Assembly: GCA_964373715.1 (NCBI GenBank)
Contig: CAYJVR010000001.1
Location: 149,164 to 213,163 of the forward strand
DNA: 64,000 nt
Reading direction: 5' to 3'
DNA from: an uncultured Planctomycetia bacterium
GTDB lineage: Bacteria > Omnitrophota > Gorgyraeia > 1-14-0-20-64-10
Shown: piece by piece, positions 21,246 to 57,834 of the stretch
Numbering within the stretch: position 1 is the stretch's first letter
Layout: each line of letters starts with the position of its first letter
Translations under genes and position numbers: made by a program
Notes under the pieces: model-generated
The model's database searches: none
What the model was told of the DNA's origin: nothing
Seen by the model: the letters and a program-made list of their open reading frames with translations, nothing else

Positions 21246-21256
21246 CAAACATTAAG

Positions 21257-21724: not shown

Positions 21725-22343
21725 CCGGTCGGCGGTTGGCGATCGGGATCCCGTTTGGGTGGCTGAAGCGGCAATCCGCGGAGGGGCGGATGTTATTCAG
21801 TGGAGGGACAAGCGGTCTGCCGACGGCGCTTTCTTAGAGACGGCAAGGGCTTTAAGGGCGGTGACGCGGAGAATGGGAGCCTTGTTTATCGTCAATGACC
21901 GGGTTGAGGCAGCCCTTCTTGCCAACGCGGATGGGGTTCACCTGGGGCACGAAGATATCTCTGTGAAGGAGGCCCGGGTTTTGGTAAAGGGTTCGATGCT
22001 GATCGGCAGGTCCACCCATTCGCTGGGAGAGGCCAGGCAAGCGCAGGCCGCCGGGGCCGATTACATCGGTGTTGGGCCTGTTTTTAAGACTCCGACCAAA
22101 CCCGGTTACCGGGTTGTGGGTACCGAGCTCATCCGGCAGGTAAAATCCAGCATCCGGATCCCTTGGGTGGCCATAGGAGGGATTGACCTTCAGACTCTGC
22201 CTTTGGTATTATCGGCGGGTGCGGTTCGTGTTGCGGTTGTCCGGGCGGTGGCTGGAGCCTCCGATCCGGAGAGTGCGGCTTGCGCCTTCAAATATAATAT
22301 CCTAGGAATCAAGCGCTTAAAGGATTACAAACCACTGAAATGA
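21678..22343 (+). CDS. thiE: thiamine-phosphate synthase
   Basis: LYVIVDRS...DVIQWRDK...VGPVFKTPTKPG...AIGGI motifs of ThiE. TTG start in the ORF track. Confidence 0.85.
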   Translation: MKKTLFQNCRLYVIVDRSAVGDRDPVWVAEAAIRGGADVIQWRDKRSADGAFLETARALRAVTRRMGALFIVNDRVEAALLANADGVHLGHEDISVKEARVLVKGSMLIGRSTHSLGEARQAQAAGADYIGVGPVFKTPTKPGYRVVGTELIRQVKSSIRIPWVAIGGIDLQTLPLVLSAGAVRVAVVRAVAGASDPESAACAFKYNILGIKRLKDYKPLK

Positions 22344-27546: not shown

Positions 27547-29079
27547 ATGACTTCTGTGTGGATTGACTCTTTTTTTGGGCAGCCGAACGTTCGACGGCTT
27601 CGAGATGTTTTGACCTCCGCTATCGCCAAGCCGATTTGGTGGACCATTGCGGGGGATGTTCCGAAGTCCCTCGATTATTCGAAAGCTTGCCGTACTTGCG
27701 ATTTTGTCCGTTCTTCGAAGGGTAAGCAAGTTTGCCAGGCGCGGTTCCTGAAAGCTCTTGAGGTTTCCCGCCGAACGAAAGAACCGCACCGATTTCTGTG
27801 TCCGATCCGGCTCCATGCCGTTTGCTTTCCCCTGAGGCAAGGGGATCAAACACAGGGTTATTTGGCCCTCTGCCACGGCGAACGGCCCCTTAGCCCGGAA
27901 GTTCAAAATCTCGCCGCGCTCGCGGCGGAATCGTCCCTGCAGGAAATGGGCCGGGCGATCGAATTGAAGAATCTTTCCGAAGCAATTCAGCCCCGCTGCG
28001 TGGCCCTTTCCACGATCCACACGATCCACCGTCTTATCAGTTCCACGTTGGATCTTAAAGAGCTTTTGCCGAGAGTAGCCCGCTTGTGTTGCCAGGTTCT
28101 GCGCGGGGAGTCTTGCGCGATATGGCTTGTGGACCGGGACAAGAAGAGGCTGATCCCGAGGGCTTTTGTCAATATCCGCAATAAGAACCAGAATGGGTCT
28201 GTTCGTGCCACCCGGCTCGGCTCCGGTCTCATCGGTCAGGCGGCCCAGAAGTGCCAATTTAGATTGATGGAGAAGAGCATGATCGTTCCTCTTGTTGAAG
28301 AGGAATGCATGGGGGTGATCATGGTGCGGCGGTCCCGCCAAGCCCAGCCGTTCGTCAACCTCGACCAGGAGATTTTGACGACTTTGGCCGAACAGGCCGT
28401 CGTGGCGATTCGGAACGCGCAGATGTATGAAACTCAGGAGCGGGTCACCTGGGGAACGATACGCAGCTTAAGCGCGATTTTGGACGGCATGGATGTCCAT
28501 TCTCCCAAGGGGGGCTCCAGCCGCCGCCAGCTGATGGCCGATGTTGCCATGGCGATTGCCGAGAAAATGGGTCTGGATTCCGACCTTCAGCGCCCCCTTC
28601 AGTACGCCGCTTTTCTCCATGATGCCGGCCGTGTGGGTATCCCTGAGGATATTATCCGGAAGCCGAGCAAGCTCAATCCCAAGGAATTTGCCATGGTGAA
28701 AGAACATACGGTCAAAGGGGCCAGGCTTTTGGAGCCGTTGGAAATCCTGGAGCCGGCGGTACCGATTATCCTTCACCACCACGAGCGGTACGACGGCACC
28801 GGTTATCCGAAGGGGTTGAAGGGGGATGCCATTCCTCTTGGTGCGCGGATTTTGGCTGTTGCCAACGCTTTTGAAGCGATGGTTTCCGAAAGGTCTTACC
28901 GGCGGTCGTTGTCGGTCGCGGAGGCGGCGCGCGAGATTTCTTCCCACGCCGGCACTCAATTTGATCCTAAGGTGGTGAGGGTTTTTATGTTTCTTGCCAA
29001 AGAAAAGAAGCTGGAGGAGATTGTACGCCGGAATGTGCTGGCTGATGCCGGGCAGGACCGGGGGAAGGGGCGGACATGA
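27547..29079 (+). CDS. GAF-domain HD-GYP phosphodiesterase (c-di-GMP hydrolase) with Cys-rich N-terminal sensor region
   Basis: C-terminal HD-GYP (HDAGRVGIPEDIIRK...HHHERYDGTGYPKGL). Central GAF. N-terminal ~120 aa with five Cys (CRTCDF...C...CPIRLHAVC). Confidence 0.8.
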   Translation: MTSVWIDSFFGQPNVRRLRDVLTSAIAKPIWWTIAGDVPKSLDYSKACRTCDFVRSSKGKQVCQARFLKALEVSRRTKEPHRFLCPIRLHAVCFPLRQGDQTQGYLALCHGERPLSPEVQNLAALAAESSLQEMGRAIELKNLSEAIQPRCVALSTIHTIHRLISSTLDLKELLPRVARLCCQVLRGESCAIWLVDRDKKRLIPRAFVNIRNKNQNGSVRATRLGSGLIGQAAQKCQFRLMEKSMIVPLVEEECMGVIMVRRSRQAQPFVNLDQEILTTLAEQAVVAIRNAQMYETQERVTWGTIRSLSAILDGMDVHSPKGGSSRRQLMADVAMAIAEKMGLDSDLQRPLQYAAFLHDAGRVGIPEDIIRKPSKLNPKEFAMVKEHTVKGARLLEPLEILEPAVPIILHHHERYDGTGYPKGLKGDAIPLGARILAVANAFEAMVSERSYRRSLSVAEAAREISSHAGTQFDPKVVRVFMFLAKEKKLEEIVRRNVLADAGQDRGKGRT

Positions 29080-41664: not shown

Positions 41665-41703
41665 CGTGGATACCTTTTATAGGGTATCATGTCTGAGAAT
41701 CCC

Positions 41704-41732
41704 TTGCAATTTCATTAGATATGCACTATATA
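41704..41732 (+). promoter_or_regulatory. candidate sigma70-type promoter (TTGCAA-N17-TATATA) for the PilZ operon, with an adjacent 6-bp inverted repeat GATACC-N8-GGTATC at 41669-41688
   Basis: Hexamers and 17-nt spacing read directly. Lies in the divergent intergenic region between the exeA-like gene and the PilZ gene. Confidence 0.35.
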
Positions 41733-41767
41733 GAGAGAAGGGAGGGCTTACTCTTGTGTGGCAAGGA

Positions 41768-42121
41768 ATGAACCAGCGGCGGTTTCCAAGGCTTAAATCT
41801 CCTTGTGTCGTCAAACTTCACCAGGAAGGTGTGGCGGATACTACTATTTCGACGACCACTGAGAACATCGGTTTGGGCGGAATCTGCGTGCTTTTGGATC
41901 GGGGCATGGACATCTTTTCGCCGGTTGATTTGGAACTCCATCTCGAGGCCGGCAAGCCGGTTTTGAAAACCCAAGGGACGATCGTTTGGGTCGTCTTGCG
42001 AAGGGACAACAAGAAGAAGCCCAGCTTCGATACGGGAATCGAGTTTTCCGGGTTATTGGCCGATGACAGGGCCCGTCTCGAAGCCTTGCTCGATAAAACC
42101 GAATCTCGTCCCGGCCGTTGA
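41768..42121 (+). CDS. PilZ-domain protein
   Basis: RRFPRL...DISLGG-like (ENIGLGGICVL) PilZ c-di-GMP-binding motifs. ATG at 41768 preferred over the longer ORF-track start. Confidence 0.7.
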   Translation: MNQRRFPRLKSPCVVKLHQEGVADTTISTTTENIGLGGICVLLDRGMDIFSPVDLELHLEAGKPVLKTQGTIVWVVLRRDNKKKPSFDTGIEFSGLLADDRARLEALLDKTESRPGR

Positions 42122-42510
42122 GCACCACGATAGAACCTTCCTTGCTTTACTCGGTTCTCTGCGATGATGTTCGCCGTGAAGAGAACGGAAAATTCATCCT
42201 CTTGGGCATGTTCGAGACGATCGGGGCGAGGGAATTCCCGGCGGTCCATCCGGTTCTTTTTGTCGTCAACGGCTGGATAGGGGGGGTCGGGACGTTTCGT
42301 CAGTACAGCCGCATTCTTGATCCGGGCGGGCAGGAGATCGCACGGGATCAGGAGACCGTTTTCCAGTTGTCCAATCTGAAGAGCAGGCACTCCGTCATTG
42401 CCCGTTTTGGAAACCTCGAATTTCCTCAGCCCGGCGAATACGCCATCGAAATACTCTTGAATGAAGATTTGAAGGTGCGGTACCCGCTGGTTATTGAGCA
42501 GGCCCGTTAG
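42118..42510 (+). CDS. hypothetical protein translationally coupled to the PilZ gene
   Basis: TTGA start/stop overlap with the PilZ gene. 130 aa. No recognisable family. Confidence 0.4.
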   Translation: MSTTIEPSLLYSVLCDDVRREENGKFILLGMFETIGAREFPAVHPVLFVVNGWIGGVGTFRQYSRILDPGGQEIARDQETVFQLSNLKSRHSVIARFGNLEFPQPGEYAIEILLNEDLKVRYPLVIEQAR

Positions 42511-43101
42511 CTAGAGCGAAGGGGGGCAGCAGCAGCTCAGGATCAGGGATTGTCCCGGCCCGCTATTTTTTATGGTGTGGGGCAGGGAGGCTTGGAAATA
42601 GAGACTGTCTCCCGGGTCCATTCTTATTTTTTCTTTTCCGACCGTCACGTCCGTTTTCCCTTTGAGCAGAAAAAGGAGTTTTTCCGTGCCGGCCGGAGAC
42701 TGTTCTTCCTTGGTAGATTTCCCCCCAGGCAGATGGATAAGTCCCGGAAGCATTTTCTTGTGGAGCGCATTTGAGGTCAGGATGGATACGGAGGCTCCCC
42801 GGCTTGTTTGGTACCTGTCCGATGGGTCCGAAGCTTTTTTGAGTTCGACTGAAGAGGCCAAAGGATCGAGCTCGGCATAAAGCTCCGGCAGGCGCACTCC
42901 CAGCGCGTGGGCGATCCGCAGGTGGGATTCAAGGGTCCCGGTCATTCTGCCGGTTTCAATCCTGCTCAGTGTTGAGAGTGCGACGCCCGATTTCTTCGCC
43001 AGGCCGGCCAGAGTCAGGTCTTTCAGCAGCCTGGTTTCCTTGATTTTCCTACCGAGGTTCTTCACAAGAGAGACGATACCAGCGGCGCGAAAAAGCGTCA
43101 A
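42511..43101 (-). CDS. XRE-family HTH transcriptional regulator with C-terminal cupin domain
   Basis: N-terminal HTH_3 (LAGLAKKSGVALSTLSRIETG). C-terminal cupin_2 beta-barrel. Confidence 0.75.
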   Translation of the reverse strand: MTLFRAAGIVSLVKNLGRKIKETRLLKDLTLAGLAKKSGVALSTLSRIETGRMTGTLESHLRIAHALGVRLPELYAELDPLASSVELKKASDPSDRYQTSRGASVSILTSNALHKKMLPGLIHLPGGKSTKEEQSPAGTEKLLFLLKGKTDVTVGKEKIRMDPGDSLYFQASLPHTIKNSGPGQSLILSCCCPPSL

Positions 43102-45201: not shown

Positions 45202-46074
45202 CCTATGCCGCCACCTGACGATCTCGACTCCAGGACCAAAAGGGTTCTTGTCGTAGATGACGAGCAGGAGGTGACCTTTGCCCTGCACGCCTATTTTTTA
45301 GGCAAGGGGTATGAGATGCTGACTGCGCTGGACGGCATGCAAGCGATGCGGCTTTTAAGGCAACACCCCGTGGATCTTGTCCTTCTCGATATGAAGATGC
45401 CCGGGGTTAATGGAATCGAGGTCCTAAAGTTCATTCACTCCCATAGCCCGCAGACCAAGGTTATTGTTGTCACCGCTTATGACGATCAATTTCAAGAGAT
45501 GGTGGAGAAGCTGGGAATTGACGGTTTTCTCATCAAGCCGTTTGGTATCGAGGCGCTGACTTCCACCGTGGAAAGGGTTTTAACGGGCAGACATAGCGAG
45601 ACAGCCCCTGTCTCCGATGATGTTTCTGCCATTCCCCGCGGCCCGAAAGCGCGGGCAAAGCTTCTGTTTGTGGAGCCAGCAGAGTACACCTACCAAGTCA
45701 AAGAGGTCTTCTTCCTCGATTCGGAAAAGTGCGGGGGGATTTACAAGGTTGACTGCGCTTATGATGTGTCTGAGGCGCTGAAAAAACTCGAATCCTTCAG
45801 GCCTGATATTTTACTTGTGGATTTGACCATGCTTGGTACCGGGGGAAAGCTGGCGCTCAAGGCAATGGCCTCCGAAGCCAAGCCGAAAGAGCTTGTTATT
45901 CACGGCTCAGGCACGGTGTTGCCCTCTTCCAAGAACGCGCACGTCGAGGATCTTACGCGGCAGGGAGTTAAGGTCGTTTACAACGAGAGCTTTACCAGGG
46001 CGGGGTTGATCCGCTTAGCGGAAGTGATCCGGAAAACGGCGATTGCTCACGGGTTGGTGGAGGTTTCTTCTTGA
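45202..46074 (+). CDS. response regulator with tandem receiver domains (second degenerate)
   Basis: REC1 with DD...D(LVLLDMKMPG)...K pattern. REC2-like fold (ILLVDLTMLG) lacking the full acidic pocket. Confidence 0.7.
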   Translation, partial: PMPPPDDLDSRTKRVLVVDDEQEVTFALHAYFLGKGYEMLTALDGMQAMRLLRQHPVDLVLLDMKMPGVNGIEVLKFIHSHSPQTKVIVVTAYDDQFQEMVEKLGIDGFLIKPFGIEALTSTVERVLTGRHSETAPVSDDVSAIPRGPKARAKLLFVEPAEYTYQVKEVFFLDSEKCGGIYKVDCAYDVSEALKKLESFRPDILLVDLTMLGTGGKLALKAMASEAKPKELVIHGSGTVLPSSKNAHVEDLTRQGVKVVYNESFTRAGLIRLAEVIRKTAIAHGLVEVSS

Positions 46075-48164
46075 TGGGGGTCTTGGCGAAGGGCTTGTTA
46101 GCTGTTGGCCTAGCGAGCCTGGCGGCTGGTTTCTTCGTCTACTCGAAGAACAGGAAGAACCCTCTCACAGCGACTTGGTTCCGGCTTTCTATGGCCACAG
46201 CGGTATGGGCGCTGAGCACCTTTTGTTTGGTGAACGCGCCCTCTTACGGCTGGGCCCTCGTCTTGGCTCGGTTAGCCCAGGCGGTTTTTAGTCTGATTCC
46301 GGTCTTCTTTCTCCAGTTCAGCCTCGCACTGCTCAATGGGTCGGCGCGGGTTCAGGGGAGTTTACTGCGTTACAGCAGGATAGCGGCAGGCGTATTCTTT
46401 CTGCTTGGTGTGACCCCGCTGATTTTTAGCCGCTTGCAGACCGATACCCTCTTTAGGTTTTATCCGATGGCGGGGCCGTTTTACGGTGTTTTTGCCGTAT
46501 GGTTTGTTATTCTCATGCTTGTTTCGCTGAGTATCCTGCTCAATGCCTACCGTCTTCACGCCGGCTACAAGAGGAACCAACTTATCTATGTCATCACGGC
46601 TTCTCTTTTCGGTTTGACGGCTTTCTTCTCATTTATTCCAATGACGTTTGCCATTTCCATACCGCCTTTGGGCCCGCTCCTGCTTGTTTTTTACGCGTTG
46701 ATCACCTATTCGGTCATTCGCTGGCGCTTGATGGATATCTCGATCGTCGTTAAAAACACGCTTATCTACGCCAGCCTTTATTCAATTTTGGTGGGGCTTT
46801 TTGTCGTGGTCGTGGTTTTCTTCGGGCAGCTTTTTTTCTACGGTCCGCAAGCTTTGGATAAGAGGGTTTTGTGGATGTGCGTCGTAGCGCTGAGCATTGT
46901 CACCGCCTTGGTGCGGCCGCTCGATACATGGCTGACGAAGCTGACCGACAAAATGCTGTTCCAGCGGAAATATGAATGGCAGAAAACCCTTAAGGAAGCT
47001 TCCCGAGGGATGGCGAAAGTCACCTCCGTTGAGAGGCTGCTGAGGCTCATGGCTCATTTCATCGGGATGAGAATCCGCGTTTCCCACGTCGGTTTTCTTC
47101 GTCGGGACAGCGGCTATTACACGATGAAGGTCAGCCGGGGGAAAGAGAAGCGGCCCATGGGGCTGACGGTGGATAGGGACAACCCCCTTGTTTTATGGCT
47201 GGAGGAGAAAAAGGAGGTCTTGTCCGATGATGAGGTCGAGTATTGGCTCCGGAACGAAAAGCTTTTCCCTCACAGGACGGTGCTCAGGCGCACCCTTTCC
47301 GAGATTAAAGGGGAGATGGGTTTACTGGGGGCTAAACTGTGCGTGCCTGCTTTCAGCAGGTCGCAGATGCTCGGCTTCTTAATCTTGGGGGAGAAGCTTT
47401 CAGGCGACCCTTACTCGAGGGAGGATATGGATCTCCTTTTGACGCTTGCCAATGAGGGGGCTATCGCGCTTGAGAACGCGCAGCTTTACGAACAGCTGTA
47501 CCAGCGGATGCATGAGATTGAGGATCTTTACCAGCGTGAACACAGGCTCTTCATCCATACAGCCATTGCGTTGGCGGCTGCTGTGGATGCACGGGATCCC
47601 TATACCCACGGTCATACGGAGCGGTGCACCGCTTACGCGCTGACAGTTGCCGAGGAGTTGGGGACCACCCATCCGGAGATGGCAGGGTTTCTTCGGTTTA
47701 AAGAGATGCTGAAGGTTTCAGGGCTACTTCACGACATAGGCAAAATCGGCATACCGGACGACATCCTCCGAAAGAAGGGGAAGCTCACGCCGAAAGAGTT
47801 CAAAAAGATGGAAGAGCACTCCATCATAGGCGCTATTATTCTCCAGCCGATTAAGGGAATGGAGGATGTGGCCAAAGCGGTAAAGGCGCATCACGAACGT
47901 TATGACGGCAGAGGTTATCCGGACGGTTTGAGGGGGACGGAGATTCCGCTTTTGACCCGAGTGATCTCTGTTGCCGATACTTTTGACGCGATAACAACCG
48001 ACAGGCCTTACCGGAAGAGGCTTTCAGATGCGGTTGCCGTGAAAGAAGTGGAGGCCGGGGCCGGAACGCAGTTTGATCCTGTGGTGGTTCAGGCTTTTTT
48101 GAGAGCTCATAAGAAGGGCCTCATCACGATGAGGCCTGTTGAAGCGACCGATATGTTAAGATAG
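46071..48164 (+). CDS. 7TM-sensor GAF HD-GYP phosphodiesterase
   Basis: N-terminal 7 TM helices (7TMR-DISM-like), GAF, and C-terminal HD-GYP (HDIGKIGIPDDILRK...HHERYDGRGYPDGL). Confidence 0.8.
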   Translation: MMGVLAKGLLAVGLASLAAGFFVYSKNRKNPLTATWFRLSMATAVWALSTFCLVNAPSYGWALVLARLAQAVFSLIPVFFLQFSLALLNGSARVQGSLLRYSRIAAGVFFLLGVTPLIFSRLQTDTLFRFYPMAGPFYGVFAVWFVILMLVSLSILLNAYRLHAGYKRNQLIYVITASLFGLTAFFSFIPMTFAISIPPLGPLLLVFYALITYSVIRWRLMDISIVVKNTLIYASLYSILVGLFVVVVVFFGQLFFYGPQALDKRVLWMCVVALSIVTALVRPLDTWLTKLTDKMLFQRKYEWQKTLKEASRGMAKVTSVERLLRLMAHFIGMRIRVSHVGFLRRDSGYYTMKVSRGKEKRPMGLTVDRDNPLVLWLEEKKEVLSDDEVEYWLRNEKLFPHRTVLRRTLSEIKGEMGLLGAKLCVPAFSRSQMLGFLILGEKLSGDPYSREDMDLLLTLANEGAIALENAQLYEQLYQRMHEIEDLYQREHRLFIHTAIALAAAVDARDPYTHGHTERCTAYALTVAEELGTTHPEMAGFLRFKEMLKVSGLLHDIGKIGIPDDILRKKGKLTPKEFKKMEEHSIIGAIILQPIKGMEDVAKAVKAHHERYDGRGYPDGLRGTEIPLLTRVISVADTFDAITTDRPYRKRLSDAVAVKEVEAGAGTQFDPVVVQAFLRAHKKGLITMRPVEATDMLR

Positions 48165-48204
48165 TTGGCAGCTGAGCATTTTTCCCTATCCAGGAGGAAG
48201 AGGA

Positions 48205-48561
48205 ATGACACTCAAAGAACGACGGAAATACATGAGGATCTCCACGGATTTAAAAGCCGAATATTGGGCTAAGGGACCTTCTATGCTGAAGGGCAATGCC
48301 TTGGTGAAGGATTGTTCCCGGGAGGGTTTTGGCGTAGTGCTGCAGGACCCGGTGGCGAAAGGGGAGCATGTGGATTTAACGTTGCGCGTTCCCGGAGACA
48401 ATATTCCGATATTCGCTACCGCGGAAGTGACCTGGTCCGAATTGGATAAGCAGGGGGTGGGCGCAGGGCTTAAGATTCTTTCTATTAAGCCTCTTGATTT
48501 GGCCCGTTTGCTCGATTTTGTTTATTCCCGTTGGCTTGGCGGGATCAGAGAAAAGCTTTAA
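48205..48561 (+). CDS. PilZ-domain protein
   Basis: RRKYMRI...DCSREGFGV PilZ motifs. 118 aa. Confidence 0.7.
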   Translation: MTLKERRKYMRISTDLKAEYWAKGPSMLKGNALVKDCSREGFGVVLQDPVAKGEHVDLTLRVPGDNIPIFATAEVTWSELDKQGVGAGLKILSIKPLDLARLLDFVYSRWLGGIREKL

Positions 48562-48619
48562 AGGAACCAGCCGGATTTCCAGCGGTTTTCTTGTCTAATC
48601 CAAGAGTGCGTATCCTTTC

Positions 48620-49495
48620 TTGATTCCTCTAGTTGTTGTTTTTCTCATTCTTTTTCTTTGGGGTGTTGCGGGGTCTTCCATAGTCGTCTCTCAGCCCCGT
48701 TACAGGGCGTCGACAACACCTTCCGATGTGGGGATCTCGTCCTGGGAGCCGCTGTCTCTTATTACGGAAGATAAGGTCTCGATCTCCGGTTGGCTGATCA
48801 GAAACCCTTTCGCCGAGGGAGTTCTACTTCTCCTGCATGGATTCGGCACTTCAAAAGCCGATCTTTTGGATGTCGCCAGGTCTCTTTATGATTTTGGAAA
48901 GCACCACCTTGTTTTGATTGATTTCCGCGGGCACGGGCATTCCGGCGGCAGATCCTTTTCGTTCGGCCGCAAAGAGGTTTTGGACGTGAAGGCGGTTTTA
49001 ACGACCCTGGCTTCGATGCCGGATTTTCGGGAGCTGCCGGTCGGATGCCTCGGGGTATCCATGGGAGGGGCCATCGGTATCCTTGCGGCGTCCCGTTATC
49101 CCCAGATACGGGCCGTCGTCAGCGATTCTGCTTATGCCGATTTTGGCAAAGCCATTGCGAGGGCCCTGAGTATCACTTATCATGTTCCCCTGTTGATTCT
49201 CGGGCAGATCGTGATTTGGAGCACCGAGGTCCGTTTAGGGTGCAAGATGGCTGTCGTCAGCCCGATGCTGGCAGTTCCCCGGATTGCTCCTCGCAGCGTG
49301 ATGATTATTCACGGGACAAACGATAGGACTGTACCCCATCAGGATGGGGAGATCCTTTTTAAGGTTGCTGGAAATCCAAAAAAACAGTGGATGATTCCCG
49401 GCGCGGAGCATGTTGCCTGTTTCTACAAAGATAGAGTGGAGTACACGCGTATGGTATCGGAGTTCTTTAGAGATGGGTTTCGCGGAACGGCGTAA
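48620..49495 (+). CDS. membrane-anchored alpha/beta-hydrolase
   Basis: N-terminal TM. GVSMGG nucleophile elbow (GxSxG). HG oxyanion region. C-terminal His. Confidence 0.65.
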   Translation: MIPLVVVFLILFLWGVAGSSIVVSQPRYRASTTPSDVGISSWEPLSLITEDKVSISGWLIRNPFAEGVLLLLHGFGTSKADLLDVARSLYDFGKHHLVLIDFRGHGHSGGRSFSFGRKEVLDVKAVLTTLASMPDFRELPVGCLGVSMGGAIGILAASRYPQIRAVVSDSAYADFGKAIARALSITYHVPLLILGQIVIWSTEVRLGCKMAVVSPMLAVPRIAPRSVMIIHGTNDRTVPHQDGEILFKVAGNPKKQWMIPGAEHVACFYKDRVEYTRMVSEFFRDGFRGTA

Positions 49496-49859
49496 ATATC
49501 CCCGCGTTAGCGAGGCTGTCCCGTGCCAGCTGACGGTGGGGGGATACACCCTTGTCGCTGAGACACGGAATATCAGCTGCGGCGGTGCCCTATGCAGGCT
49601 CTCCAGCGTCGTCGCCCCGATGACTCAGATGGAGATCTCTTTCCAGCTTCCCGGGACTATACCCGGTGTTTCCGGCCGGATGATACGGTGTGTGGGGGTT
49701 GTAGTTCGCCAAGAAAAGGAAAAGGTTCTCTCGGCCGGCGATGCCTCCGTGCGTTTCACGACCGCTATCTACTTTTCCGAACTGAAACAGGAGGACCGGC
49801 GGCTCATCGCTGAATTTGTCCTGCAGAGCATGCTCTCCCACGACCGTCGGCGCACCTAA
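49473..49859 (+). CDS. PilZ-domain protein
   Basis: RRKYPRV...NISCGGALC PilZ motifs. Internal ATG after the hydrolase gene preferred. Confidence 0.65.
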   Translation: MGFAERRKYPRVSEAVPCQLTVGGYTLVAETRNISCGGALCRLSSVVAPMTQMEISFQLPGTIPGVSGRMIRCVGVVVRQEKEKVLSAGDASVRFTTAIYFSELKQEDRRLIAEFVLQSMLSHDRRRT

Positions 49860-49885
49860 AGCGAGTAGCTGTAATGAGTAACACC

Positions 49886-49922
49886 AGCGTACTGCCCTTG
49901 GAGGTAGTACGCTAATTTTTTT
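49886..49922 (+). terminator. Rho-independent terminator after the PilZ gene
   Basis: AGCGTACT ... AGTACGCT 8-9 bp stem followed by AATTTTTTT. Confidence 0.5.
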
Positions 49923-50062
49923 GCGCCGCATCGTTTCACCAACTCCACGTATTCTTTCCCCAGGTTTGGCCAGAGATAGAACATTTTAGACATCCCTTGA
50001 CAAAACAGGCTTTTGTCGGCAACACTTGTAGTAGAGAGATAAGAGCTTGTTTTTTAATGTGT

Positions 50063-50162
50063 TAGTGCTGAAAAGGGCAAACGATTCGAAAGGATCGGGC
50101 GCAATGCTAGAGGTCCTCCCCGCTAAAGTCTAATGGTGGAAGGATAGCTCGGCTGCCAGCAA
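50063..50162 (+). promoter_or_regulatory. c-di-GMP-I (GEMM) riboswitch aptamer
   Basis: Reads AAAAGGGCAAACGAUUCGAAAGGAUCGGGCGCAAUGCUAGAGG ... GGAAGGAUAGCUCGGCUGCC. It aligns motif-for-motif with the Vc2 GEMM-I consensus (GGGCAAACCAUUCGAAAGAGUGGGACGCAAAGCCUCCGG ... GGUAGGUAGCGGGGUUACC). Closing stem GCUG/CAGC. Confidence 0.65.
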
Positions 50163-50177
50163 AAGAAAGGTTTCGCG

Positions 50178-50207
50178 CCCATCCTGTTATTGCAGGATGG
50201 GTTTTTT
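50178..50207 (+). terminator. intrinsic terminator/expression platform downstream of the GEMM aptamer
   Basis: CCCATCCTG-ttattg-CAGGATGGG followed by TTTTTTATTT, 24 nt before the next start codon. Confidence 0.6.
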
Positions 50208-50230
50208 ATTTGTCAGATTTTGGAGAATAG

Positions 50231-50446
50231 ATGGCTGATAAAACCAAACTGTCGATAGAAGAAGCAGCCCGGTGGTTGGGTGTTTCGAGCCGAACCGCTT
50301 ACCGGTTGGCTCAAGCCGGCAGAATTCCTGCCTTCAAGGTAGGGGGACAATGGCGTTTCAGCGAGAAGATGCTCGAGGAGTGGATGGCCGACCAGGTAAC
50401 CATCAAGCGCCTCCAGGTGGAAGAAACGAGGAGGAGATCCGCGTGA
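50231..50446 (+). CDS. excisionase-family (MerR-like) helix-turn-helix DNA-binding protein
   Basis: 71 aa. LSIEEAARWLGVSSRTAYRLAQAGRIPAFKVGGQWRF matches the excisionase-family HTH (TIGR01764-like). Confidence 0.65.
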   Translation: MADKTKLSIEEAARWLGVSSRTAYRLAQAGRIPAFKVGGQWRFSEKMLEEWMADQVTIKRLQVEETRRRSA

Positions 50447-50516
50447 ACGGCCTTTTTGTTTTCAGCGAATCCACCGGAAAGTTTCTGAGGAACATGCCGG
50501 GGAAGAGGAAACGATC

Positions 50517-52907
50517 GTGAAGGTGAAGGCGAAGTTATTAGCGGGATTCGGGATCATGGCGTGCATCGTCGCCGTAGTTGCCGCACTCAATTTCTATGTT
50601 GCCCACCAGGTCAACAGGCTCAGGGGTGTCGAGCTTCCCATGGAGCAGAACCTCCGTAGGGTAGAGGTCAGTATCTGGGAAGCAATCCATGCGGCCGACT
50701 CCTTTAGGTTCACGGCAGATCCTGCCTATGAGGAGCTCTACTTCAAGCAGTTGGGTGACGTGGATGGGTTTTATCTGAAATATCTGGACTTGATCAGTAC
50801 CTCAGAGGAGAAGCAGTACGCGGAGGAATTCAACCGCTTCTGGGCAGAAGGCAAAGCAGCCGGCGAAAAGATACTTAAGTTCATCCGACAACAGCGGAAA
50901 GCCGAAGAGACTTTTTATGCGGAGATTAATTTTTCCGATGAGGTGATCGACTCCAAGATCCAGGCCAAATTCTCTCTAGAAGACCCACAGCTTTTAGCCA
51001 AGGAACAGACCCTCCGGGAAGTGGAGGTCAGCATCTGGGAGGCAATCCATGCGGCCATGCAGTATACCAGTTTGACCCCAGAGATTCCGGGGTCTGGATC
51101 CCCCCCGAAGACCTACCAGGAGTTCATGGAGAGAAAGTTTAAGGATGTGGAGACCTTTTGGGCTAAGTATAAGACCTATGCTACCTCCCCGGCTGAGCGA
51201 GAAGCGATTAAGGAATTTGAGATGCATTGGCAAGCGGCTGTCCCAAAGGGAAGACAATTGGTCGAGTTGCAGGATAGAATTCAAGCAGAGTTTAGCCTGC
51301 TGTACCAGGCCGCAGAAAAAACCGGTGACGTGATCAATAACAAGATGCAAGCGGTCATTCAAGAAAGGGTAGAACAGCGAAATTCCCAGTCAAGACAAGT
51401 CACTGCGCGGGGAATGGTGCTGGCGATAGGCAGCTTTATCCTGGCAATTTGGATCAGCTTGGGGTTAACCCGTTTGATCACGGTGCCGCTCGGAAATCTG
51501 GCGAATGCCGCGAAGGAGATTGAGCAGGATAATTTTTCGGCTCGGGCTGAGGTGAGCACAAGGGATGAGATCGGGGAGCTGGCGAAGAGTTTTAACCGGA
51601 TGGCTGAGGAGCTGGAAAGATCCAGAGGAGAGATGCTTTTCGCCAAGGCATATGTGGAAAACGTGGTCAACTCGATGGCCGATGCGCTGATTGTGATCGA
51701 TCTTGATGCCCAGATTCAGACCATCAACCAAGCAGCTTGCCAGCTTTTGGGTTACGAGAAGGAAGAGCTTCTGGGGAAAGCCGTAAGTTTCATTGCTGTA
51801 AAAGAGCGCATCTTTAAAGGCACAGGATTGGAGAAACTCACCCGGAAAGGTGTTTTAAAAGAAGTGGAGATGACGTTCACGGCCAAGTCGGGAGAGCGGA
51901 TCCCTGTTTTGGTAACGGGGAGCGTGCTGTTGGGTGAGAAGAAACGCAAGGCCGGAATTGTGATGATGGCGCAAGATATGCGTCAATCCAAAACGGTTGC
52001 GCAGCTTTCCAAACTGCAGATTAAGGACCAGGAAAAGAACCTAGAGTTGGAGCTGAAGAGTCGGGAGCTGGAGGAAAGACGCAGCATCTTAACCGCCCTT
52101 CTGGAAGATGCAAACGCCGCTCGGAAAGAGGTGGAGCGCCGAGAGAAACAACTCAAGGAGACCCAGGCGATGTTGGTCCAGGCAGGGAAGCTGACAGCGC
52201 TTGGCCAACTGGGGGCCGGGGTTGCCCATGAGCTGAATCAGCCGATTGCCGCCATTCTGGGGTTCTCGCAACTTTCCTTAACCCAAATTCCCTCCGATCA
52301 TCTCTTGGCCCCTCATTTAAAGCTCATTGAAGAGCAGAGCAAACGGATGGCCAAGATCGTGGACAACATCCGATCGTTTGTCCGGGATTCTCACGAGAGT
52401 CACGAGGCGATTTCTCTCAATCAGCCGATTGTGGACGCGCTCATGCTGATGACGGTGCAACTGAAAGGCAGGGGGATCGTGGTGGAGACCCGGCTGGATT
52501 CGAATCTTCCGCTGATAGTTGCCGATAGCAACGAGCTCCAGCAGGTGTTCCTGAACCTGTTGACCAACGCGCGGGATGCGGTGATGGAGAAGGGGCCGGG
52601 AGGAAAGATTCAGATATCTACTTTCTCCGATGGAAGCGATTGGGTGGTGGCTAAAGTCAGCGATACAGGGACGGGTATTCGCGAGGAGATTCGAGAGAGG
52701 ATATTTGACCCCTTTTTTACGACTAAGCCGCCGGGGAAAGGGACCGGCCTGGGGCTTGCCATCGTGTCCGGGATCATGGCCAATCACCAAGGGACGATTG
52801 TGGTGGAATCCGTTTCGGGCGAAGGGGCGACGTTTGTTGTTAAGATTCCCGTGGTGAAGCAACAAAAGAGGCAGAACACGAAACAGAAGTTGAGGGCGAC
52901 AGCATGA
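50517..52907 (+). CDS. sensor histidine kinase with duplicated periplasmic helical sensor module, HAMP, PAS, HisKA, HATPase_c
   Basis: GTG start. TM. Two copies of a ~120-aa module ([11 protein letters not shown]...). Second TM and HAMP. PAS ([14 protein letters not shown]). H-box [15 protein letters not shown]-boxes DTGTGI / GTGLGLAI. Confidence 0.85.
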
Positions 52908-52977
52908 AACAGCTCAGGATACTGGAGGTGGATAACGAAGCGGAGCAAGTGGAGCAGCAGAAGCCAAGAGGTGCCGA

Positions 52978-53355
52978 ATGAGGATTTTGGTGGCGGACGA
53001 TGAACAAGTGATACGGGATCTAATCTTCCAGGTGCTGCGGATGAAGGGGCACGAGATTATACTTGCCACCAACGGAAAGGAGGCGGTGGCGCAGGCGGCC
53101 TCCGATTCCTTCGACGCGATCTTCCTGGATGCGGTGATGCCGGAACTGGATGGGTTTGAGGCCTTCAAGCAGATTCGGTCAAGGGATCCCCATGCGGTGG
53201 TGGTGATCATGACCGGGTTTGCCGTGGAGGAAGGGATACGGGAAGCGATGGTTCTGGGAGCTTTCGACTTTCTGTACAAACCTTTTAACATCGTAGAATT
53301 GATGATGATTCTGGAGAAGATGAAGAAAAGAGAGAGCTTAAAGCCCTTAACGTAG
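52978..53355 (+). CDS. single-domain response regulator (CheY-like receiver)
   Basis: ILVADDE...FLDAVMPELDG...K in the receiver pattern. 125 aa. Confidence 0.8.
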   Translation: MRILVADDEQVIRDLIFQVLRMKGHEIILATNGKEAVAQAASDSFDAIFLDAVMPELDGFEAFKQIRSRDPHAVVVIMTGFAVEEGIREAMVLGAFDFLYKPFNIVELMMILEKMKKRESLKPLT

Positions 53356-53362
53356 AGGACAG

Positions 53363-55816
53363 ATGACAGAGAACAGGGGACAGAAAACAGAGGACAGAAG
53401 CGAGAAGAGCATCCGAGCGATCCAGCAGGAGGGGAAGAAGAAGTTGCGGTCAGCGCGGCAGATCCTTTTGGTCGATGACAACGACGCGCTGCTTCAGCTT
53501 ATGTGCGAATTGGTTGAGCAAATCGGCTGTGAGGGGATCAAAACGGCTTCGGTCTCTGAAGCGATGAAGGTTCTTGAGAAGAAAACCTTTCCACTGGTGG
53601 TCACCGATCTTCGGTTTCCTGCCGGTCAGCCGGATGGGCTGGATCTCCTCAAATGGGTGAAAGAAAGAGCCCCCTCCACGGAGGTGATTCTCATCTCGAG
53701 CTTTCCCTCTCAGGGGGCTGCTGTGGATGCCCTGGAGAGTGGCGCAAGCGATTTTCTCATTTGCCCCTTTCCTTCCAACCAGTATGCCATCGAGGTGATC
53801 CAGCGTGCTTTGAACCGTCAGGCACAGTCCGAAAGCTTGCGGCATATGACCGAAGAGGTCAAACACAGGAACATCGAGCTGGAGATGCTCTACAAGGTTT
53901 CTAATGCTATCGGTTACACCCTCGATTACGAGGTTCTGATGCGCCTGGTTATGGGTTCTTTAACCCAAGCGGTTCCATTTGATTTAGCCGCTTTCCTTCT
54001 CATTGTTCCGGAGAGAACGATGAGCGTCTACCTCAGAGAAGGGATTCCAGATCGCTGTATAGAGCGGTGCAGAAAACAGGTGGTTGAAGCGTTTAGTCTT
54101 GTGGGGGGTGTCTGGCAGGGAGATGAGGGCTGCAAATCGAACGTGACGCAGATTCCTCCGGGTCCCTCCTCAGAAGCCAGCGATACGGTCGGTCATTCCG
54201 AGCAGACCTTTTACAATTGTCCTCTTTTGGTGGGAGATCGCCTGATTGGTATGATTGCCATAAGCTCCATCCATGGCCAGCGGTTTGAAGAGTCCGATGT
54301 GCGGTTTGTATCGACGGCAGCTAACCAGATGGCCGGAGCCATTGAGCGGATTCGCCAGATCATTCAGTCTGAGAAGAGCAAGATGGAGATCATGGTGGAA
54401 AACATGGTAGAAGGGGTAATCATGATCGACCAGAAAAGAGAAGTTGTCGTCATCAACCCCCGGGCAAGGAAAATGCTGGGCTTCGGGACTGAAGAAGTCC
54501 CCTCCTCGAGACGCGTCAAAGACAGGCTCAAGACGCTGGGACTAGATCTTTGCGTGAGGGAATGCGAACAGGAACAGCATATTGTGACGAAGGAATTCGA
54601 CCTTTCCGAGGCGATGGGATCCAAGTGTCTCGCCCGCTGTCAGGCGAACTTGGTGAAGGACGCGGCGGGTAACCTCCTCGGGCTTGCTCTGGTTTTGACC
54701 GATGTGACCCTGCAGAAGGAAATTGACCAGATGAAAACCGAATTTGTTTCCATCGTTTCACACGAACTGCGTACCCCCTTGTCGATCACCAAGGAGGGGA
54801 TTGCTCTTGTGTTGGACGGGGTTCTGGGCGCTTTAAACACGGAACAAAACGAGGTTCTTTCCGCAGCCCAGAACAACATTAATAGATTAGCGCGCCTCAT
54901 CAACGATCTTCTGGATGTTTCCAAGCTGGAGGCTGGCAAGGTTGAGCTCAAAAGGAAGCGAATGAACCTGGAGGATCCCGTTCGAGAGGTGGCTGCGCAG
55001 TTTGCCCCTCAGGTGAAAAAGAAGGGATTAGAACTTCAGATCGACTTTCCCTCAGGGGGGGTGGAGCTTTATGCTGATAGGGATCATTTAATTCAGATTT
55101 TCGTCAACTTGGTGGGGAACGCTCTCAAGTTTACTCCCAGCGGTACCATCCGGGTCTTCGCTCGGGAGAGTCCGGATGGTGTGGAGTGTGTGGTGGCCGA
55201 TACCGGAATCGGAATTTCCAAAGAGGATCTCCCCAAGGTTTTCTCCAAGTTCCAGCAGTTCGGCCGTGTCGCCGGCAGTGGCGCAAAAGGGACGGGTCTG
55301 GGCCTTGTTATCGTCAAACAGATGGTGGAGCTTCACAAGGGAAAGATCCGGGTCGAAAGCATGTTAGGCACAGGAACCACCTTTACGTTTACCTTGCCCA
55401 GATTTACGGCGGAAGAACTGTTTCGGGAGCGAATCTCAGAGCCTCTGAAAAGAGCGCAAGGGTCCAGGGCTCCTTTGTCTTGCCTTTTGTTCGATTTTAA
55501 AGGGTTTGATACCCGATGGGGGAAGCTGGGCAGGGACGAGGCGGCGGGCCGGATGAAAGGTTTGGAAGAGCAAGTCAAGAAACTCCTTCGCAAGAACGCA
55601 GATCTAGTCCTTGGGGAGAACTACACCCTTCTGGTGATCCTGCCGGAGACTCAGCGCCAAGACGGTTTGAAGGTTGCGGAACGGATTTTACAGGTAGTAG
55701 GAAACCAAGGGGCTTTACTGGAAGGCAATCCACCCCCTGCTGAGATAGTTTATCGGTTGGCCACTTTTCCCGAGGATGGTGAGACAGAGGAAAATCTATT
55801 AAGGAGATTGTTGTGA
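53363..55816 (+). CDS. hybrid sensor: N-terminal receiver, GAF, PAS, HisKA, HATPase_c, C-terminal degenerate GGDEF-like domain
   Basis: REC (ILLVDDND...VVTDLRFP). HisKA SIVSHELRTPL. HATPase DTGIGI/GTGLGL. C-terminal ~150 aa LLFDFKGFDTRWGKLGRDEAAGRM...LVLGENYTLLVILPET aligns to GGDEF (GENYT in place of GGDEF). Confidence 0.8.
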   Translation: MTENRGQKTEDRSEKSIRAIQQEGKKKLRSARQILLVDDNDALLQLMCELVEQIGCEGIKTASVSEAMKVLEKKTFPLVVTDLRFPAGQPDGLDLLKWVKERAPSTEVILISSFPSQGAAVDALESGASDFLICPFPSNQYAIEVIQRALNRQAQSESLRHMTEEVKHRNIELEMLYKVSNAIGYTLDYEVLMRLVMGSLTQAVPFDLAAFLLIVPERTMSVYLREGIPDRCIERCRKQVVEAFSLVGGVWQGDEGCKSNVTQIPPGPSSEASDTVGHSEQTFYNCPLLVGDRLIGMIAISSIHGQRFEESDVRFVSTAANQMAGAIERIRQIIQSEKSKMEIMVENMVEGVIMIDQKREVVVINPRARKMLGFGTEEVPSSRRVKDRLKTLGLDLCVRECEQEQHIVTKEFDLSEAMGSKCLARCQANLVKDAAGNLLGLALVLTDVTLQKEIDQMKTEFVSIVSHELRTPLSITKEGIALVLDGVLGALNTEQNEVLSAAQNNINRLARLINDLLDVSKLEAGKVELKRKRMNLEDPVREVAAQFAPQVKKKGLELQIDFPSGGVELYADRDHLIQIFVNLVGNALKFTPSGTIRVFARESPDGVECVVADTGIGISKEDLPKVFSKFQQFGRVAGSGAKGTGLGLVIVKQMVELHKGKIRVESMLGTGTTFTFTLPRFTAEELFRERISEPLKRAQGSRAPLSCLLFDFKGFDTRWGKLGRDEAAGRMKGLEEQVKKLLRKNADLVLGENYTLLVILPETQRQDGLKVAERILQVVGNQGALLEGNPPPAEIVYRLATFPEDGETEENLLRRLL

Positions 55817-56181
55817 AGGTTGTTCTCATCGTAGAGGATGAATCGGAGCAGAGCAAACTTCTCCAGATCCGGCTGGAGGCAAACGGCTTCGGGACGATTA
55901 TTGCCAAAAACGGCCAGGAAGCTTTGAAGGAGGCTGAAAGCGGCAGGCCAGACTTGGTGATCGTGGATCTTCTGCTTCCCGATATGAACGGTTTTGAGGT
56001 TTGTCAGCGGCTGAAAGAGGCTCCCGAAACCCGGCAGATTCCCGTTGTCATGCTCACCGCCTATCCTGTGGAAGATGTCGAGCGCCGGTGTCTAGAGTCG
56101 GGGGCTTCTCTCTGTTTGAGGAAACCCTATGTGGCTTCGGAACTTCTCGCAGAGATCAAACGGTTGCTGAAGAAGGTGTAA
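55813..56181 (+). CDS. single-domain response regulator
   Basis: VLIVEDE...IVDLLLPDMNG...K pattern. Confidence 0.8.
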   Translation: MKVVLIVEDESEQSKLLQIRLEANGFGTIIAKNGQEALKEAESGRPDLVIVDLLLPDMNGFEVCQRLKEAPETRQIPVVMLTAYPVEDVERRCLESGASLCLRKPYVASELLAEIKRLLKKV

Positions 56182-56239
56182 CCGATGGCGAAAAGGCGGA
56201 TTCTCTTGTCTGTCTTGGAGGCCTTGGCAGGACCGACCG

Positions 56240-56644
56240 ATGCCTGAGAAATGCCGCATTCTGATCGTGGATGACGAACCTGATCTTGTCAGGCTGGTCT
56301 GCTTGCGCCTGGAGGCGTCAGGCTACGAGGTTTTGGTGGCCATGGATGGGGAGGCGGCTTTGGCGAAGGCTCGGGTTGAAAGGCCTGATTTGATCCTCCT
56401 AGACCTGATGCTTCCGAAAATGGATGGCTACCAGGTCTGTCGCCTCCTTAAAAACGACACTCGCACTGCGCCAATCCCTATCGCCATCTTTACAGCCAGA
56501 AGAGGAGAGTACGATGAGGAACTTGGGAAAGAGTGCGGGGCCGACGCCTACATCCGAAAGCCCTTTTGGCCGGAAGAGTTGTTGGAAACGATACGGTTGC
56601 TGCTGTTAAAATCACATGGCTCAAAAGCCGGTTTCTTTCACTAA
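56240..56644 (+). CDS. single-domain response regulator
   Basis: ILIVDDEPD...LLDLMLPKMDG...K pattern. Confidence 0.8.
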   Translation: MPEKCRILIVDDEPDLVRLVCLRLEASGYEVLVAMDGEAALAKARVERPDLILLDLMLPKMDGYQVCRLLKNDTRTAPIPIAIFTARRGEYDEELGKECGADAYIRKPFWPEELLETIRLLLLKSHGSKAGFFH

Positions 56645-56718
56645 AACATCCCCCTAGTTTTCACTTTTTTGACTTCACTTGTCTTGTCAATCGCATCGTT
56701 GCGGAGTACCATAAAAAC

Positions 56719-57834
56719 ATGATTGTCGGTGTTCCTAAGGAAATCAAGAAGGACGAATATCGGGTTGCGCTTGTTCCGGCCGGTGTCGCGGCGCTCCGGC
56801 AGGCGGGCCATTCCGTTTTAATCCAGTCAGGCGCTGGCGCCGGGTCGAACATCGCAGACAGGGAATACACCGAAGCCGGGGCTGAAGTTGTCGAGTCGGC
56901 TGATTATATCTTCAAGAAAGCCCAGCTGATCATGAAGGTCAAAGAGCCCCAGCCGGTCGAATACGGGAAGCTTCGGATTGGTCAGGTGATCTTCACTTTC
57001 TTTCATTTTGCAGCCAACAGGGAACTTACGCTGGCGATGATCAAGCAGAAAACGGTCTGTATTGCCTATGAGACGGTAGAGGATTCCCACGGGCAGCTGC
57101 CGATTCTCATCCCGATGAGCGAAGTGGCCGGGCGCATGGCGGTACAGGAAGGGGCGAAGTATCTCGAAAAGCCGACGAAAGGGAAGGGGATCCTTCTGGG
57201 CGGTATACCCGGCGTGGCTCCGGCTGCTATCGTGATTCTCGGCGGAGGCGTTGTGGGGGCGAACGCGGCCAAGGTGGCGGCCGGTTTCGGGGGCGAAGTG
57301 ACGGTGATGGATGTGGATTTGAACCGCCTTCGGTATCTGGAAGATATTATGCCGAAGAACGTCTCCTTTTTAATGTCCAACGAGCATAACATTGCGCGGA
57401 AACTCGGAGTGGCCGATCTGGTTTTTTGTTGTGCGCTGATTCGCGGCGGACGCGCCCCGATCCTGATCAAGCGCTGGATGCTCAAGAAGATGAAGCCCGG
57501 ATCTGTCATCGTGGATGTAGCGATTGACCAAGGGGGGTGCGCGGAAACCTCCCGCCCCACCACGCATGCGGCGCCCGTCTACTTGGAGGAATCGATCGTC
57601 CATTACTGTGTGACGAATATCCCCGGCGCTGTCCCGATCACCTCCACTTACGGCCTGACGAATGCCACGCTGCCTTTCGCGCTGCAGATCGCCAACAAGG
57701 GACTTTCGCGCGCCATGAAGGATAACCCGGCTCTCGCGCGTGGTCTGAATGTTGCGCGGGGAAAGGTGACCTACCGGTCTTTGGCGCAGGATTTGAATCT
57801 CACGTATACGCCCCTCAGACGCGTTCTCTCCTAG
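56719..57834 (+). CDS. ald: alanine dehydrogenase
   Basis: MIVGVPKEIK...VALVP. Rossmann fold ILGGGVVG. AlaDH/PNT C-terminal region. Confidence 0.85.
   Translation: MIVGVPKEIKKDEYRVALVPAGVAALRQAGHSVLIQSGAGAGSNIADREYTEAGAEVVESADYIFKKAQLIMKVKEPQPVEYGKLRIGQVIFTFFHFAANRELTLAMIKQKTVCIAYETVEDSHGQLPILIPMSEVAGRMAVQEGAKYLEKPTKGKGILLGGIPGVAPAAIVILGGGVVGANAAKVAAGFGGEVTVMDVDLNRLRYLEDIMPKNVSFLMSNEHNIARKLGVADLVFCCALIRGGRAPILIKRWMLKKMKPGSVIVDVAIDQGGCAETSRPTTHAAPVYLEESIVHYCVTNIPGAVPITSTYGLTNATLPFALQIANKGLSRAMKDNPALARGLNVARGKVTYRSLAQDLNLTYTPLRRVLS

Follow-up and report, generated by a model that had tools for sequence, protein, structure and literature searches.

A 12-kb c-di-GMP signalling region of an Omnitrophota genome: probably two neighbouring transcription units, one with a predicted OFF riboswitch

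The DNA considered here is a stretch of 64,000 nucleotides (64 kb, called the window) from contig CAYJVR010000001.1 of an uncultured Omnitrophota bacterium, and our subject is the dense run of cyclic di-GMP (c-di-GMP) and two-component signalling genes that it carries at 45202-57834. A sequence-only reading had taken these 12 kb as one island, an output or decoding module for c-di-GMP. Domain and RNA family searches, together with a comparison of related genomes, lead us to describe the region as what are probably two independent, neighbouring c-di-GMP-related transcription units: module A (45.2-49.9 kb) and module B (49.99-56.65 kb), the latter with a predicted c-di-GMP OFF riboswitch. All of the signalling genes lie on the + strand and are tightly spaced. 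Domains were called by Pfam scans, and gene starts were taken in part from gene calls on identical metagenomic contigs. The features are as follows.

45205-46074, + strand: response regulator with a canonical REC domain and a C-terminal degenerate (pseudo) receiver, without output domain (Response_reg in two stretches, 115 bits)
46074-48164, + strand: 7TM-GAF-HD-GYP protein (HisKA_7TM, GAF_2 and HD_5/HD; HD_5 127.8 bits)
48205-48561, + strand: first PilZ protein of module A, single-domain (PilZ 43.5 bits; RKYMR ... DCSREG)
48620-49495, + strand: alpha/beta-hydrolase (Hydrolase_4 / Abhydrolase_1; GVSMG nucleophile elbow)
49473-49859, + strand: second PilZ protein of module A (PilZ 41.7 bits; RKYPR ... 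NISCGG)
49886-49923, + strand: intrinsic terminator ending module A (hairpin 49886-49913; 11-bp stem, then a T-run)
49997-50025, + strand: promoter-like element of module B, read by eye (TTGACA at 49997; weak -10 hexamer)
50066-50161, + strand: c-di-GMP-I (GEMM-I) aptamer (Rfam RF01051 match at 50066-50160 with 57.1 bits; gathering score 35)
50175-50212, + strand: expression platform with intrinsic terminator (hairpin 50177-50202)
50231-50446, + strand: HTH_17 (excisionase-family) DNA-binding protein of 71 amino acids (HTH_17 66.4 bits)
50517-52907, + strand: membrane histidine kinase (duplicated extracytoplasmic sensor, followed by HAMP-PAS-HisKA-HATPase)
52978-53355, + strand: single-domain receiver (Response_reg 95.9 bits; conserved Asp, Thr and Lys present)
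53363-55816, + strand: REC-GAF-PAS-HisKA-HATPase kinase with a degenerate GGDEF tail (the hybrid kinase)
55813-56181, + strand: single-domain receiver (Response_reg 88.2 bits; kept 3' of the kinase in the related contigs L006, L007, L008 and L012)
56240-56644, + strand: single-domain receiver (Response_reg 92.2 bits; kept in L007, L012 and L027)
56719-57834, + strand: alanine dehydrogenase, not a signalling gene (AlaDh_PNT_N/C)

The protein and RNA inventory of the sequence-only reading was recovered by these searches, from the tandem-REC regulator, the 7TM-GAF-HD-GYP protein and the two PilZ genes around an alpha/beta-hydrolase gene to the GEMM riboswitch, the kinase with a duplicated sensor, the hybrid kinase with its degenerate GGDEF tail and the three single-domain receivers. 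It had overlooked the HTH_17 gene, which is the immediate target of the riboswitch, and both intrinsic terminators, and the range it treated as signalling throughout closes with 1.1 kb of alanine dehydrogenase. Its argument for operons from several 4-nt overlaps stands in part: gene spacing does fit operons, but only one clean 4-nt overlap exists, at 55813, where a receiver gene starts inside the hybrid kinase gene. At the junction of the response regulator and HD-GYP genes (46071/46074) the overlap is 1 or 4 nt, depending on the choice of start codon, and the hydrolase and second PilZ genes overlap by 23 nt (49473/49495). In an NCBIfam scan no protein came up to an equivalog cut-off.

The division of the region into two modules is based on synteny. 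Five Omnitrophota contigs (L089-L093), whose HD-GYP proteins are 56-76% identical, share a common gene order: AAA (- strand), PilZ, DUF6941, HTH/Cupin (- strand), usually a BNR-type gene, response regulator, HD-GYP, PilZ and hydrolase. Next, 3' of the hydrolase, there is usually a second PilZ gene, and alanine dehydrogenase and NUDIX/PolX/HhH-GPD genes follow in all five; the second PilZ gene of L092 reaches into the beginning of the alanine dehydrogenase gene, and in L089 a Fic gene lies between module A and alanine dehydrogenase. A kinase operon between module A and alanine dehydrogenase was found in none of the five, and an Rfam search of L089-L091 did not find the riboswitch there. The window matches the Omnitrophota block from 40.8 kb on, with 49860-56718 as an extra segment, and the flanking 20 kb are syntenic with Candidatus Omnitrophica genomes that carry HD-GYP orthologues. 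From these homologues we take the window to be of Omnitrophota lineage; a Geobacter-like origin, suggested at first by GC content, was rejected on the same grounds. Exact copies of the window proteins were seen only in a few metagenome assemblies and in one 488-kb NCBI contig.

Conversely, the cassette of module B occurs elsewhere without the HD-GYP half. Both modules are adjacent only in L006, a relative of ~91% identity. Contig L007 (kinase 68% identical) carries the riboswitch, terminator and HTH_17 gene followed by a shorter PAS-kinase with a degenerate GGDEF tail and two receivers. In L012, an Omnitrophota contig (46% identical), the order is PilZ, tRNA, riboswitch, HTH_17, REC-PAS-kinase with GGDEF tail, REC and REC, and the cassette is surrounded by cell-division and glutathione genes. 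Contig L008 (42% identical) has kinase, REC, hybrid kinase and REC, while L027, a Planctomycetales contig, has HTH_17, kinase, REC and REC, with no riboswitch detected at E <= 0.01. When a collection of species-representative genomes, which includes neither the source genome of the window nor L006, was scanned with the hybrid kinase, the best matches were Omnitrophota kinases of 37-46% identity, and the riboswitch was present only in L012. Because the kinase half is absent from the site in L089-L093 and the cassette is found alone elsewhere, the island resolves into module A plus an insertion: module A is part of an Omnitrophota-conserved block that starts at the 41.7-kb PilZ gene, and module B is a lineage-specific insertion between the second PilZ gene and alanine dehydrogenase. 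Scattering of the genes among relatives had been named beforehand as what would refute the island, and by that measure the single unit fails, although each half is conserved. Within the window the modules are separated by the terminator hairpin at 49886-49913 and the promoter-like element.

The small HTH_17 gene is the first gene 3' of the riboswitch in the window, L006, L007 and L012, and it precedes kinase-REC-REC in L027. Its product scores 58.3 bits against the excisionase-family domain model TIGR01764 (cut-off 28.8) and 19.2 bits against the BldC family model NF033787, below the cut-off of 77. A homologue search with the protein, limited by the word index, returned only itself. Given that no receiver carries an output domain and that HTH_17 stands first in every such operon, this protein is the most plausible candidate for the DNA-binding output of module B.

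Two other histories of the locus have to be weighed against that of two independent units. Inheritance and regulation of the whole 45.2-57.8 kb as one co-evolved output or decoding island would account for the shared strand and close spacing of all the genes, and it gains something from L012, where a PilZ gene also lies just upstream of the riboswitch cassette, and more from L006, where the full arrangement is kept. The latter shows that the modules can stay together, and A and B may have some co-function in this lineage. Nevertheless, a single island sits poorly with the missing riboswitch/kinase half at this site in five relatives, with the cassettes that stand apart from any HD-GYP half, with a strong terminator and a promoter-like element between the halves and with a range that closes on alanine dehydrogenase. 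The synteny largely refutes the single island, and we consider it improbable. Still less probable, to the point of being a marginal hypothesis, is the reading of module B as a mobile-element remnant, with HTH_17 as an excisionase/AlpA-type protein and the kinase genes as horizontally acquired cargo. The TIGR01764 match would suit such an origin, as would the insertion of module B relative to other Omnitrophota, the tRNA gene adjoining the L012 cassette and an AT skew that switches sign across 50-56 kb. However, the search around module B turned up neither an integrase nor flanking direct repeats nor inverted repeats, and in each of four independent contexts, of which three have a riboswitch in front, HTH_17 opens a kinase-REC-REC operon. 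As a fixed operon leader it appears to be a member of the operon and not a recombination directionality factor. The skew itself is +0.035 to +0.10 over 50001-56000 and negative almost everywhere else in the window, which is consistent with a compositionally distinct insert or merely with the amino-acid content of the kinases. We therefore retain the two-unit description as the probable one.

The riboswitch of module B belongs to the c-di-GMP-I family by its RF01051 match, which covers model positions 1-87, and has a GAAA tetraloop. Homologous aptamers in L006, L012 and L007 score 57.8, 51.7 and 41.4 bits, the last being truncated at a contig end. Rfam model position 11, an unpaired purine that immediately precedes GCAAAC, is occupied by G in the window, L006 and L012 (in L012 read from the sequence); the truncated L007 aptamer does not include this presumed selectivity position, and the comparison of the ligand base is one of three leaders. 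Since all three have G, c-di-GMP is the likely ligand. Discrimination between c-di-GMP and 3',3'-cGAMP (the cyclic dinucleotide GMP-AMP) has been assigned to G20 in Vc2 numbering, which is A in GEMM-Ib (PMC6140456). One element of the aptamer is unusual. The linker between the two hairpins (50103-50105) reads AAU in the window and in L006 (6567-6569), and AAA in L007 and L012; with the AAU linker, the second hairpin has at its base a U-U mismatch that is flagged in the alignment of the window and L006. An AAA linker is nearly invariant in GEMM RNAs, with 2 exceptions in 322 (PMC1950547), and the window aptamer departs from this feature of the c-di-GMP-I class.

The terminator lies downstream, clear of the aptamer, and begins 14 nt past the closing stem. 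Over 10 bp with one bulge, its 5' strand, GCGCCCAUCC (50175-50184), is the complement of the aptamer sequence GGAUCGGGCGC (50092-50102), the latter being the 3' strand of the first Rfam hairpin (P2 in crystal-structure nomenclature) together with the conserved junction GGGCGC. For the window, L006, L007 and L012, respectively, the calculated energies of this antiterminator duplex are -21.0, -17.2, -10.7 and -15.1 kcal/mol, and those of the terminator duplex are -18.4, -18.0, -15.0 and -15.6 kcal/mol. When transcripts were cut just before the 3' strand of the terminator, three of the four leaders had the antiterminator in their minimum-energy fold. In the aptamer helix, three pairs differ among the leaders in the 5' strand, against an invariant 3' strand, and all four leaders have one and the same terminator core, CCCAUC/GAUGGG, despite divergence of the adjacent kinase to 46% identity. 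This is how a doubly constrained strand should look. Upstream, the TTGACA of the promoter-like element is shared by the window, L006 and L012; a consensus promoter scan did not report the element at 49997-50025.

An independent set of GEMM-I leaders was collected by a metagenome pattern scan with a relaxed aptamer pattern. In the 25 de-duplicated unrelated leaders that have a non-overlapping terminator, the cognate pairing of this aptamer strand with the 5' strand of the terminator came to -11.42 kcal/mol, more stable than the -9.87 ± 0.34 kcal/mol obtained after permutation, and 0 of 1000 permutations were as low. Clear examples are GAAUGGGGC with GCCCAUUC and CCUUGGGG with CCCUAAGG. This suggests a general OFF-switch architecture in the GEMM-I class, in which an internal strand of the aptamer would serve as the antiterminator. 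As an observation on individual members of the collection (loci L069-L209), the terminator 5' strand complements the locus's own first-hairpin 3' strand plus GGGC in, for example, L131, L096, L193, L145, L146 and L115. None of the 120 matches of the relaxed-pattern scan had HTH_17 downstream.

From the complementarity conserved in the four leaders and its recurrence in unrelated ones, we predict an OFF switch. Without ligand, the 3' strand of P2 and GGGCGC would pair with the 5' strand of the terminator, forming an antiterminator that allows read-through; c-di-GMP would lock the aptamer, letting the terminator form and switching module B off. The logic would be that of Cd1 with a different antiterminator strand, and we hold termination promoted by c-di-GMP to be a reasonably probable polarity.

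Several points weigh against this prediction. The antiterminator must displace a local hairpin, and the full-length minimum-energy fold contains the aptamer and the terminator side by side. In L007 the pairing is a weak one, and the truncated L012 fold lacks it. Moreover, the aptamer strand is constant in the four leaders, which are related, and hence no compensatory change can be seen among them. On the side of the ligand, the correspondence of Rfam position 11 to Vc2 G20 is a presumed one. An ON switch, a translational switch or a cGAMP sensor like the Geobacter GEMM-Ib RNAs would be the alternatives, and the coexisting hairpins, the AAU linker and its U-U mismatch could each be cited in their favour. 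Many GEMM RNAs were indeed predicted to be ON switches, with a terminator overlapping the 3' side of the aptamer (PMC1950547), but here the two do not overlap, and ligand binding therefore cannot exclude the terminator directly; the conserved complementarity between the aptamer helix 3' strand and the terminator 5' strand, and its recurrence in unrelated leaders, fit the OFF design instead. Likewise, GEMM-I variants specific for cGAMP exist, and some bind both ligands (PMC6140456). Specificity for cGAMP, considered here because of the GEMM-Ib variants, was rejected since the presumed selectivity base is G and not A. Taken together, these alternatives appear unlikely, although less so than a single island, and the OFF switch remains our preferred account.

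Module A is centred on the HD-GYP protein, a putative membrane c-di-GMP phosphodiesterase in which both catalytic motifs, HDIGK and HHERYDGRGYP, are intact and supply the HD dyad and HHExxDGxGYP. About 60 orthologues of the same length were found at 54-76% identity, and every named one is from Candidatus Omnitrophica. The response regulator at 45205-46074 is highly conserved in L089-L093, and its gene is probably translationally coupled to that of the HD-GYP protein, given their overlap; the pair is in effect a split RpfG-type enzyme, in which phosphorylation of the regulator might tune c-di-GMP hydrolysis. Both PilZ proteins keep the receptor motifs RxxxR and [DN]xSxxG, and those of the second are also kept in L006, L089, L090 and L092. 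The hydrolase gene is syntenic in all relatives, and the hydrophobic N-terminus of its product, read from the sequence, is likely a membrane anchor. The regulator/phosphodiesterase pair would lower c-di-GMP when prompted by phosphorylation and by a membrane- or GAF-sensed cue, and the two PilZ proteins would relay the c-di-GMP level, probably to the adjacent hydrolase or to other targets.

In module B, the sensor of the first kinase (50517-52907) is duplicated internally, with a 59-nt repeat of 83% identity and protein halves that are 30% identical (E=2e-15). The tail of the hybrid kinase scores 23.2 bits against Pfam GGDEF, just under the cut-off of 23.8, and that of the L012 orthologue 40.9 bits. 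A profile built from 17 such tails matches solved GGDEF domains, among them 6d9m (E=2e-13), DosC, WspR and PleD, and the tail has many relatives that are likewise fused to kinases, together a large family found for the most part in Omnitrophota. None of the 58 aligned members of the family has a GG[DE]EF motif. The active-site positions of the window tail read -NYTL in place of the GG[DE]EF of diguanylate cyclases, and the hybrid kinase therefore cannot be a cyclase. At the inhibitory site (I-site) the tail reads LRKNAD, with K at the canonical R position and R one residue upstream, the residue that HMMER aligns to the inhibitory-site R of 6d9m. The family keeps R[RK]xxD here (R column: R in 36/58, K in 10/58; D column: D in 55/58), and by analogy with SgmT the tail may possibly bind c-di-GMP.

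The sequence-only reading had also held that the locus contains readers (PilZ, riboswitch) and a degrader (HD-GYP) of c-di-GMP with no competent GGDEF protein. Re-inspection bears this out for the island and for the whole 64 kb: G[GAS][DE]EF is absent from every open frame of at least 60 amino acids in the window. In L093, a CHASE2-GGDEF-HD-GYP protein (20084-22112, - strand) occupies the place where the window and the other relatives have UvrD, and cyclase-type GGDEF proteins therefore exist near the block in this lineage.

The hybrid kinase shows two further peculiarities. In its N-terminal REC domain (53363-53800) the receiver lysine is Cys in the window (DFLICPF) and Lys in L012, and the consensus of a four-sequence kinase alignment is Arg (DFLVRPF); the domain may be an atypical receiver. 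At 53354-53402, three 14-nt units (AGAGGACAGATGAC-like) in tandem run from the ribosome-binding site over the start codon into the first codons of the gene. With a 14-nt period, a change in copy number would shift the reading frame, but L006 has three copies too, and phase variation was rejected.

Other features of the window were recovered with the same scans. They include the additional GAF-HD-GYP protein and the further PilZ protein reported earlier outside the range, both confirmed by Pfam.

41666-42121, + strand: upstream PilZ protein (PilZ 41.3 bits; RRFPR, but NxGxxG for NxSxxG)
42118-42510, + strand: DUF6941 protein (DUF6941 86 bits)
42511-43101, - strand: HTH_3/Cupin_2 regulator, part of the conserved syntenic block (Pfam)
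27547-29079: additional GAF-HD-GYP protein (Pfam)

The PilZ variant (RRFPR ... NxGxxG, with glycine replacing the serine) is always paired with the DUF6941 gene in the window and L089-L093, and each of the Omnitrophota relatives compared has the pair (41666-42510 in the window) ~3 kb upstream of its HD-GYP cluster. Far from the range, a cobalamin riboswitch (RF00174, 64 bits) at 5533-5730 lies directly 5' of a TonB-dependent receptor gene and overlaps the mechanically called open reading frame of that receptor (5554-7809; Plug and beta-barrel domains), which looks like an ordinary B12-uptake arrangement.

In summary, module B would be transcribed from its own promoter-like element and terminated early at high c-di-GMP, while low c-di-GMP would permit expression of HTH_17, the two kinases and the three CheY-like receivers. 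By lowering c-di-GMP, the HD-GYP protein of module A might conceivably de-repress module B. A wider proposal, which we regard as doubtful, is that HTH_17-kinase-REC-REC constitutes a signalling unit of the Planctomycetes-Verrucomicrobia-Chlamydiae (PVC) superphylum, with HTH_17 and the receivers acting as a split response regulator, and that in Omnitrophota it has come under dual c-di-GMP control through the OFF riboswitch and the GGDEF tail, at a level set by the HD-GYP/PilZ cluster.

The modules are fairly ordinary, and nothing here overturns current understanding. HD-GYP and PilZ proteins are textbook components, and a degenerate, receptor-type GGDEF domain on a kinase is already known from SgmT. 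The first description of the GEMM motif, in 2007, already listed it upstream of histidine kinase, PAS, HAMP, HD-GYP, GGDEF and cheY genes (PMC1950547). The new elements are modest ones, namely the host phylum, the conserved cluster of response regulator, HD-GYP, PilZ, hydrolase and PilZ genes, the HTH_17-led cassette and the predicted antiterminator design based on an internal strand. The Omnitrophota are uncultured bacteria, and a full-text literature search returned almost nothing on their c-di-GMP signalling. Looking forward, the locus offers two testable units, a phylum-wide response regulator/HD-GYP/PilZ/hydrolase cluster and a riboswitch-gated two-component cassette led by a tiny DNA-binding protein, and the design with an internal aptamer strand as antiterminator may apply to many GEMM-I riboswitches.

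Compared with known systems, module A is closest to the RpfG-type REC-HD-GYP proteins, with which it shares a receiver and an HD-GYP domain whose HD and HHExxDGxGYP motifs are intact; the two window proteins partially match the NCBIfam REC-HD-GYP model NF053512, far below its cut-off. Here, however, receiver and HD-GYP domain are divided between two proteins whose genes overlap, with a 7TM and a GAF sensor on the HD-GYP protein and an additional pseudo-receiver on the regulator. Its PilZ proteins resemble stand-alone PilZ receptors in being single domains with RxxxR and [DN]xSxxG, but they flank an alpha/beta-hydrolase gene, which one of them overlaps, in an Omnitrophota-wide cluster.

For the hybrid kinase the nearest precedent is the SgmT/DigR system of Myxococcus xanthus, in which the histidine kinase SgmT, of domain order GAF-kinase-REC-GGDEF, serves as a c-di-GMP receptor by means of its degenerate GGDEF domain (PMC3509222). 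Myxococcota REC-GAF-kinase-GGDEF proteins are among the distant matches of the hybrid kinase, at only about 27-30% identity. Here, in contrast, the order is REC-GAF-PAS-kinase-GGDEF, the partners are single-domain receivers and HTH_17 and not a DigR-type regulator with an Xre-type HTH, and the canonical RxxD of the I-site is replaced by KNAD (or RKNAD), which makes binding of c-di-GMP uncertain. The HTH_17 protein itself is like the small Xis/AlpA-like and BldC-like HTH_17 proteins in its length (~70 amino acids), its composition of a DNA-binding domain only and its matches to PF12728 and TIGR01764 above their cut-offs, yet it differs from them in having no recombinase nearby and in being fixed as the leader of a two-component operon.

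Finally, the riboswitch resembles the c-di-GMP-I riboswitches Vc2 of Vibrio cholerae and the Cd1 OFF switch of Clostridioides difficile in its full-length RF01051 match and its GAAA tetraloop. It has a G at the position that we map to Vc2 G20, and, as in Cd1, a downstream terminator that is able to coexist with the aptamer (PMC9262584). It is set apart from known GEMM-I riboswitches by its AAU linker, by HTH_17 as the first gene, by its Omnitrophota-type host and by a predicted antiterminator that would use the 3' strand of an internal aptamer helix in place of the 3' strand of the closing stem.

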